The translations under genes were made by a program, and so were the position numbers. From Escherichia coli (GTDB taxonomy: Bacteria > Pseudomonadota > Gammaproteobacteria > Enterobacterales > Enterobacteriaceae), in assembly GCF_041886205.1 (NCBI RefSeq), contig NZ_CP169029.1: DNA of 64,000 bases; one strand, written 5' to 3'. The notes under the pieces are model-generated. The model saw only the letters and a program-made list of their open reading frames with translations, made no database searches and was not told the DNA's origin. Positions 35,185 through 36,004 of the stretch are shown one piece after another; position 1 is the first letter of the stretch; each line of letters opens with the position of its first letter.

Positions 35185-35239
35185 GGTGATGCTGCCAACT
35201 TACTGATTTAGTGTATGATGGTGTTTTTGAGGTGCTCCA

Positions 35240-35515
35240 GTGGCTTCTGTTTCTATCAGCTGTCCCTCCTGTTCAGCTACTGACGGGGTGGTGCGTAACG
35301 GCAAAAGCACCGCCGGACATCAGCGCTATCTCTGCTCTCACTGCCGTAAAACATGGCAACTGCAGTTCACTTACACCGCTTCTCAACCCGGTACGCACCA
35401 GAAAATCATTGATATGGCCATGAATGGCGTTGGATGCCGGGCAACCGCCCGCATTATGGGCGTTGGCCTCAACACGATTTTCCGCCATTTAAAAAACTCA
35501 GGCCGCAGTCGGTAA
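35240..35515 (+). CDS. insA: IS1 protein InsA
   Basis: 91-aa ORF (M)[41 protein letters not shown]... Confidence 0.95.
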
Positions 35516-35937
35516 CCTCGCGCATACAGCCGGGCAGTGACGTCATCGTCTGCGCGGAAATGGACGAACAGTGGGGCTATGTCGGGGCTAAATCGCGCCA
35601 GCGCTGGCTGTTTTACGCGTATGACAGGCTCCGGAAGACGGTTGTTGCGCACGTATTCGGTGAACGCACTATGGCGACGCTGGGGCGTCTTATGAGCCTG
35701 CTGTCACCCTTTGACGTGGTGATATGGATGACGGATGGCTGGCCGCTGTATGAATCCCGCCTGAAGGGAAAGCTGCACGTAATCAGCAAGCGATATACGC
35801 AGCGAATTGAGCGGCATAACCTGAATCTGAGACAGCACCTGGCACGGCTGGGACGGAAGTCGCTGTCGTTCTCAAAATCGGTGGAGCTGCATGACAAAGT
35901 CATCGGGCATTATCTGAACATAAAACACTATCAATAA
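35434..35937 (+). CDS. insB: IS1 InsB frame (expressed as InsAB' transposase by -1 frameshift)
   Basis: 167-aa ORF overlapping insA 3' end. Confidence 0.93.
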
Positions 35938-36004
35938 GTTGGAGTCATTACCAACGATCAAATTCAAACCAGCATGAAACTTTATTAAGCGTATAACCCC
36001 ATCT

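Follow-up and report, generated by a model that had tools for sequence, protein, structure and literature searches.

IS1 and the two genes that it interrupts

The window, a 64,000-nucleotide stretch of an Escherichia coli chromosome, carries a complete IS1 between betA and thrW, and this element interrupts one gene on each side, ykgA on the left and a DUF2326 ATPase gene on the right. The features around the element are as follows.

32146..33816, plus strand: betA (choline dehydrogenase), an open reading frame annotated as betA in strains wlxctx60 and PT62; the final intact core gene left of the junction
34149..34277, minus strand: aldo/keto reductase remnant (ykgQ-like pseudogene), mapping to an annotated pseudogene (L002 9150-9278) and corresponding to ykgQ in K-12
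34578..35184, plus strand: ykgA orthologue, 5' 607 nt (202 codons) of a gene for an AraC-HTH plus GyrI-like regulator, cut by IS1
35185..35952, plus strand: IS1, complete, IS1B/C type, with no target-site duplication
35185-35207: left inverted repeat (IRL) of IS1
35240-35515: insA of IS1, intact open reading frame
35491-35497: A6C frameshift motif of IS1, intact
Running to 35937: insB' frame of IS1, intact
35930-35952: right inverted repeat (IRR) of IS1
35953..36036, minus strand: first 28 codons of a DUF2326 ABC ATPase gene (ATG at 36036), cut by IS1; aligned to the intact gene of E. coli M3
36005..36256, minus strand: ABC-3C middle component 6 (MC6), intact open reading frame; RefSeq annotation in M3, and Pfam PF20293 on the identical product
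36225..37205, minus strand: ABC-3C effector-type protein (SMEK_N plus CTD10), intact open reading frame; NCBIfam SMEK_N at 113.6 bits, Pfam PF21941 and PF20275
37459..37534, minus strand: thrW, tRNA-Thr(CGU), called by ARAGORN; Rfam tRNA at 71.8 bits
37649..38902, minus strand: proA, the nearest core gene to the right of thrW, from its open reading frame and annotations

Members of the IS1 family have a length of about 768 bp, imperfect inverted repeats of some 23 bp at their ends, and two frames, insA and insB', that a -1 frameshift at an A6C motif connects. Simple insertion of IS1 produces a direct duplication of 9 bp of target, and rarely of 8-14 bp. A first reading of this DNA, made from the sequence only, had described a complete IS1 of 768 bp with both terminal repeats and insA/insB, and this description holds at exactly 35185-35952. 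Position 35185 is the only place in the 64 kb of the window with an exact match to the canonical left inverted repeat, the 23-mer GGTGATGCTGCCAACTTACTGAT, where chance would give 0 matches. The element finishes with ...AAGTTGGAGTCATTACC, and its ends are identical at 18 of their first 23 positions. Both products match the NCBIfam model transpos_IS1, the InsA part with 90 bits and the InsB' part with 143.8 bits, relative to a cut-off of 100 that is set for the fused protein. At the DNA level the element differs from IS1B/IS1C of K-12 at 5 of 768 positions (99.35% identity). It shares their length, terminal repeats, insA/insB' and A6C site. Nothing distinguishes the element itself, and only its chromosomal location is new here.

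IS1 is preceded by the 9-mer CGGTATGCA and followed by the 9-mer AACGATCAA. These differ, as the sequence-only reading had noted, and no direct repeat surrounds the element at k = 7, 8, 9, 10, 11 or 14. The right-end boundary carries a 1-nt ambiguity (the final C of IS1 could equally be assigned to the DUF2326 gene), and a duplication hidden at another length or by a 1-nt boundary shift was considered and rejected, since the shift yields no repeat. The missing target-site duplication indicates that this IS1 copy is not a simple insertion, and leaves its identity as IS1 unaffected.

On the left, the intact ykgA orthologue of strain wlxctx60 spans 858 bp and encodes 285 amino acids (WP_040062570.1), and is followed by fdeC on the opposite strand. 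The window retains nucleotides 1-607 of this gene, i.e., 202 of 285 codons counted from the annotated ATG at 34578. The truncated frame adds one IS1-encoded Arg before a TGA inside the IS1 repeat (35187-35189), giving a 203-amino-acid product. That the left gene is Rob-like and truncated had thus been read correctly from the sequence, while the earlier figure of 214 codons was counted from an upstream GTG at 34545 and does not stand. The intact protein has the architecture of Rob, an N-terminal AraC-type double HTH followed by a C-terminal GyrI-like domain (Pfam HTH_18 at 27-106, GyrI-like at 127-283). RobA gives the top NCBIfam match, which extends over the whole length; the score of 194.1 bits lies below the equivalog cut-off of 380 bits, and the protein is therefore a paralogue of Rob, encoded by the ykgA orthologue, and not Rob itself. 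The truncated YkgA retains the DNA-binding domain and has lost about half of the GyrI-like ligand domain. Upstream, the ykgQ-like remnant at 34149..34277 is common to relatives of this strain.

On the right, the sequence-only reading had seen an AT-rich cassette followed by thrW. Both are there, the former with a G+C content of 31.8%, but it had missed that the cassette belongs to an ABC-three-component (ABC-3C) conflict system and that its ATPase gene is also cut by IS1. ABC-3C systems of this type (SMEK_N/CTD10, MC6, DUF2326) comprise three genes. Here the effector and MC6 genes are undamaged and encode the same proteins as the widespread form, whereas the ATPase gene keeps only 28 of the 581 codons that it has in strain M3, which leaves the system incomplete. 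Among Rfam families searched over 33000-38000, thrW was the sole match. Of 5,426 complete E. coli genomes, only 48 carry the cassette, with an identity of 99.8-99.9% and with damage to it in several cases; the identical SMEK protein is listed for 3,703 blocks of the collection, whose chromosomal settings vary. The sole SNP of the cassette (36410) is synonymous; it was tried as a lineage-specific SMEK marker and dropped, as the look-up gave the widespread form.

Intact copies of the source element (L025, L030 and L033, positions 9708-20693) measure 10,946 bp and carry the ABC-3C cassette as thrW-proximal cargo. On either side of them lies a direct repeat that covers 40 nt or more of the thrW 3' end, and they include traJ/trbJ/trbL-like genes, with an integrase at the far end. 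The window holds one copy of the thrW 3'-end repeat and no integrase, and its thrW-integrated element is a remnant. Elements can occupy thrW in tandem, as a P22-like prophage and the 10.9-kb element do in CP160169.

DNA missing from the thrW-bet interval

Across 5,426 complete E. coli genomes, none covers 80% or more of window positions 33000-38000, and the two IS1 flanks are nowhere adjacent. When these genomes were searched for the exact junctions, the best-ranked matches were all in two pieces, with IS1 at other positions. The closest complete genomes are those of wlxctx60 and 6EVA, which exceed 99.95% identity to the window on each side of the junction and from which it differs by 8 substitutions in about 57 kb, leaving aside the ragged end of the last aligned block. 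Three blocks of the window (1-25422, 25420-35184 and 37457-59919) align to wlxctx60 at 99.96-99.99% identity, the middle one, which ends at the ykgA breakpoint, at 99.99%. Identity restarts at 37457, so that the cassette starts where thrW has its 3' end and the integrative element its attachment site.

In wlxctx60 and 6EVA, 12,106 bp lie between thrW and the position of the ykgA breakpoint, and both ykgA and fdeC are intact. In wlxctx60, this segment (855201-867306 of the record) includes a degraded integrase, genes for Mn-catalase, ferritin-like, YciE/F and con-10 proteins, a LysR regulator, an SDR, ykgR, fdeC and the ykgA 3' end; IS1 and the ABC-3C cassette are both absent from it. Neither the ykgA 3' end nor the rest of the missing 12.1 kb has a match elsewhere in the window. 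In the window, 3,642 bp separate the betA stop (33816) from the 3' end of thrW (37459), in agreement with an earlier estimate of about 3.6 kb, and the accompanying statement that K-12 carries CP4-6 and many further genes between thrW and betA was also accurate, the interval in MG1655 being 62.6 kb with CP4-6 included. The proper comparator, however, is the pair wlxctx60 and 6EVA, in which thrW and betA are 13.5 kb apart, and not K-12 with its 62.6 kb. In strain M3, 37.7 kb separate the breakpoints.

The genes of both flanks follow the order and orientation of the normal chromosome, with bet...ykgA on one strand and thrW-proA-proB on the other. This colinearity points to a deletion, and an inversion in its place was ruled out because chromosomal orientation is kept on both sides. 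The flanks are thus colinear but non-adjacent in other genomes, and the intervening DNA is absent from the window (12,106 bp relative to wlxctx60, 37.7 kb relative to M3), the pattern by which IS-associated deletions are recognized. We conclude that the structure is very probably an IS1-bounded deletion of some kind, with about 12-22 kb lost at the IS1 junction.

Both junctions recur outside this genome. The 203-amino-acid truncated YkgA product, and hence the left junction, was found in 16 Logan contigs of independent short-read assemblies, among them those of runs SRR9913974, SRR8464768, SRR29303307 and SRR28800585, and the 38-amino-acid edge-partial product of the right junction in 2 Logan contigs. 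One run, SRR29303307, has both junctions, on contigs identical to the window. This recurrence in independent assemblies indicates that the structure is inherited in the lineage. Four of the five junction contigs retrieved were identical to the window; the fifth, from SRR8464768, combines the left junction with the ancestral (wlxctx60) allele at position 34133, so that the junction must be older than at least one substitution in the lineage. At both junctions the short-read contigs stop 30 nt into IS1, and short reads alone therefore cannot link the two.

Proposed origin of the junction and competing routes

The deletion would have fused ykgA, at its codon 202, with the DUF2326 ATPase gene of the thrW-integrated element, at codon 28. 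As a starting point we envisage an ABC-3C element of about 10.9 kb at thrW, ahead of the 12.1 kb still held by close relatives. A single IS1 insertion would have followed, most plausibly in the 3' part of ykgA, and this resident IS1 may then have transposed replicatively, within the same molecule, into the AT-rich DUF2326 gene and so caused an adjacent deletion. If the two segments lay in tandem, about 9.4 kb of the element (with integrase and attR) and about 12.1 kb of chromosomal DNA (with fdeC and the ykgA 3' end) would have been lost, or about 21.5 kb in all. The tandem ancestral layout itself, the element followed by the wlxctx60-type 12.1 kb, was seen in no genome. The remaining IS1 would have one old and one new flank under this route, which accounts for the lack of a target-site duplication. 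An IS that sits at a deletion junction and lacks such a duplication is a textbook outcome, and the deletions in gal described by Reif and Saedler are reportedly a classical case of adjacent deletion mediated by IS1.

Adjacent deletion by a resident IS1 is the route that we favor, with moderate confidence. It calls for fewer events within a very short divergence (two, compared to three for recombination between two copies), and insertion sequences have been shown to strike the 3' region of ykgA. A previous study ascribed missing target-site duplications either to adjacent deletions or to recombination between IS copies, the same two routes that the sequence-only reading had offered for this locus, and found that all 14 of 14 re-examined IS-associated deletions of the LTEE were stepwise adjacent deletions, caused by IS150 and not IS1 (PMC11708052). 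The deletion junction proposed by that reading is upheld by the colinear flanks and the missing interval. We looked in the complete genomes and in Logan gene calls for either expected intermediate, i.e., a ykgA IS1 with CGGTATGCA on both sides or a DUF2326 IS1 with AACGATCAA on both sides, and found no isolate with either, a weak negative because the search relied on guessed gene-caller products. Exact look-up of ykgA 3'-fragment products (edge-partial and internal-start) returned nothing or only other IS insertions, namely an IS2 in CP035817 and an inverted IS1 in SRR14598727, and look-ups with two products guessed for the rest of DUF2326 had no relevant match.

The leading competitor, possible but distinctly less probable in our estimate, is that two like-oriented IS1 copies, inserted independently into ykgA and DUF2326, underwent RecA-dependent homologous recombination that excised the interval and left a hybrid IS1. 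The end product would be identical, with colinear flanks and no target-site duplication; both sites are prone to IS1 in other strains (ykgA, and the cassette region of USMARC-49610), and the process is a recognized source of missing duplications (PMC11708052). It would, however, require three events within the time of 8 substitutions per about 57 kb, in a group whose relatives have no IS1 in the interval, and no reciprocal junction product is on record, which is a weak negative. A single-step origin, with IS1 captured into a double-strand break of an ongoing deletion of about 21 kb, without transposase-made staggered cuts and hence without a target-site duplication, appears improbable. This third route is proposed in PMC11708052, which reports IS movements that lack such duplications and accompany large rearrangements, and it would fit the lack of any intermediate with either junction alone; yet such intermediates are expected to be missing from a sparse sample in any case, the hypothesis is unproven and was put forward for IS5/IS481 and not for IS1, and the same study accounts for all re-examined LTEE cases by ordinary adjacent deletion. 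Were it true, the window would offer an IS1 example from a natural isolate, at a site hit repeatedly by several IS families.

We regard it as similarly improbable that homologous recombination brought in a ready-made ykgA'-IS1-'DUF2326-MC6-SMEK-thrW fragment from a different strain. Such a transfer would suit the rarity of the cassette (48 of 5,426 genomes), its near-identity everywhere and its absence from the closest relatives. Against it, no cluster of foreign SNPs lies beside the junctions (one substitution in ykgA-betA and one in proA), the window matches wlxctx60, and not M3 or FLI21, at 37766/37808 and beyond, and the cassette edge coincides with the thrW 3' end, as for site-specific integration. 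Least probable of all is an assembly artefact in which two IS1 copies were collapsed into one and the deletion is not real. In its favor, short-read contigs halt 30 nt inside IS1 at both junctions and thus cannot by themselves link them, but the window is contiguous through IS1 and over 64 kb, the intervening DNA is absent from it, products of the reciprocal junctions are on record in no run, and SRR29303307 holds both junctions on contigs identical to the window.

Other IS-associated rearrangements are known at this locus. The ykgA 3' part and the DNA just after it have received independent IS1 insertions at several positions (ykgA in L001, L006, L015, L016 and L024), an IS2 lies 3 nt from the window's ykgA breakpoint in CP035817, and an IS3 lies about 48 nt downstream of the window's IS1 junction in K-12. 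The ykgA 3' region may be an insertion hot spot or may be under repeated selection for loss. K-12 provides a close parallel, its ykgA (b0300) being a pseudogene at an eaeH-IS3A-ykgA junction that is likewise truncated at the 3' end by an IS, with loss in the neighbouring fdeC/eaeH. It differs from the window in that the element is IS3 and not IS1, and in that the deletion is small, comprising part of eaeH and the ykgA 3' end, whereas the deletion in the window reaches the thrW island. Three further strains resemble the window in architecture but not in breakpoints: FLI21 (betA-IS903B-'DUF2326-MC6-SMEK-thrW, with another IS family), 700481 (ykgA'(486 nt)-IS1-integrase-thrW) and USMARC-49610, in which IS1 abuts the same cassette next to MC6. 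These IS-bounded deletions of the thrW-bet interval are independent events. Pigeon strains PT62 and LP5-1 have yet another IS1-bounded rearrangement at the locus, in which an IS1 located 148 bp downstream of an intact ykgA (PT62, L001 8584-9645) joins ykgA to a truncated afuB/fbpC-mmuM-mmuP block.

Consequences for annotation and changes elsewhere in the window

The event is ordinary: a known element, a known class of mechanism, and a locus known to be IS-prone, and it amounts to strain-specific genome decay. Its value lies mostly in annotation, in that ykgA, fdeC and the ABC-3C defence system of this strain should be recorded as lost or inactive. FdeC is an adhesin and vaccine candidate. The ABC-3C system is without its ATPase, and the thrW element is to be scored as a fixed remnant for which excision is no longer possible. 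The window also adds one more case to the repeated remodelling of the thrW-bet interval and the ykgA 3' part by IS1, IS2, IS3 and IS903B in E. coli, and either junction sequence provides a handy clone-specific marker of the lineage.

Several other differences were observed along the window. At 25420-25422, 3,259 bp of the wlxctx60 sequence (877072-880330 of the record) are absent, removing the 3' part of ehaA (autotransporter beta-domain) and nearly all of pdeL/yahA. This junction has a 3-bp overlap and no IS, and a Logan contig (L010) encodes the same 644-amino-acid truncated EhaA, indicating that the loss is common to the lineage. An older IS-free deletion, at 33838-34068, is common to wlxctx60, 6EVA and PT62. 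K-12 and M3 carry ykgH, ykgEFG and rclRABC between betA and ykgQ/ykgA; these genes are missing here, and short pieces matching the ykgG 3' region are all that stays.

At 8591-8671 on the minus strand, just upstream of yahM, ARAGORN called a tRNA-Ser(GGA). Rfam detected no tRNA at this position (E <= 0.01) and none is annotated at the matching place in wlxctx60, and the call is probably a false positive. Toward the other end of the window, identity to wlxctx60 and 6EVA stops at 59919, just past yafV; an ISAs1/H-repeat-type transposase open reading frame lies at 60114-60902 on the minus strand, in place of which wlxctx60 carries an IS256 fragment together with T6SS/Rhs remnants.
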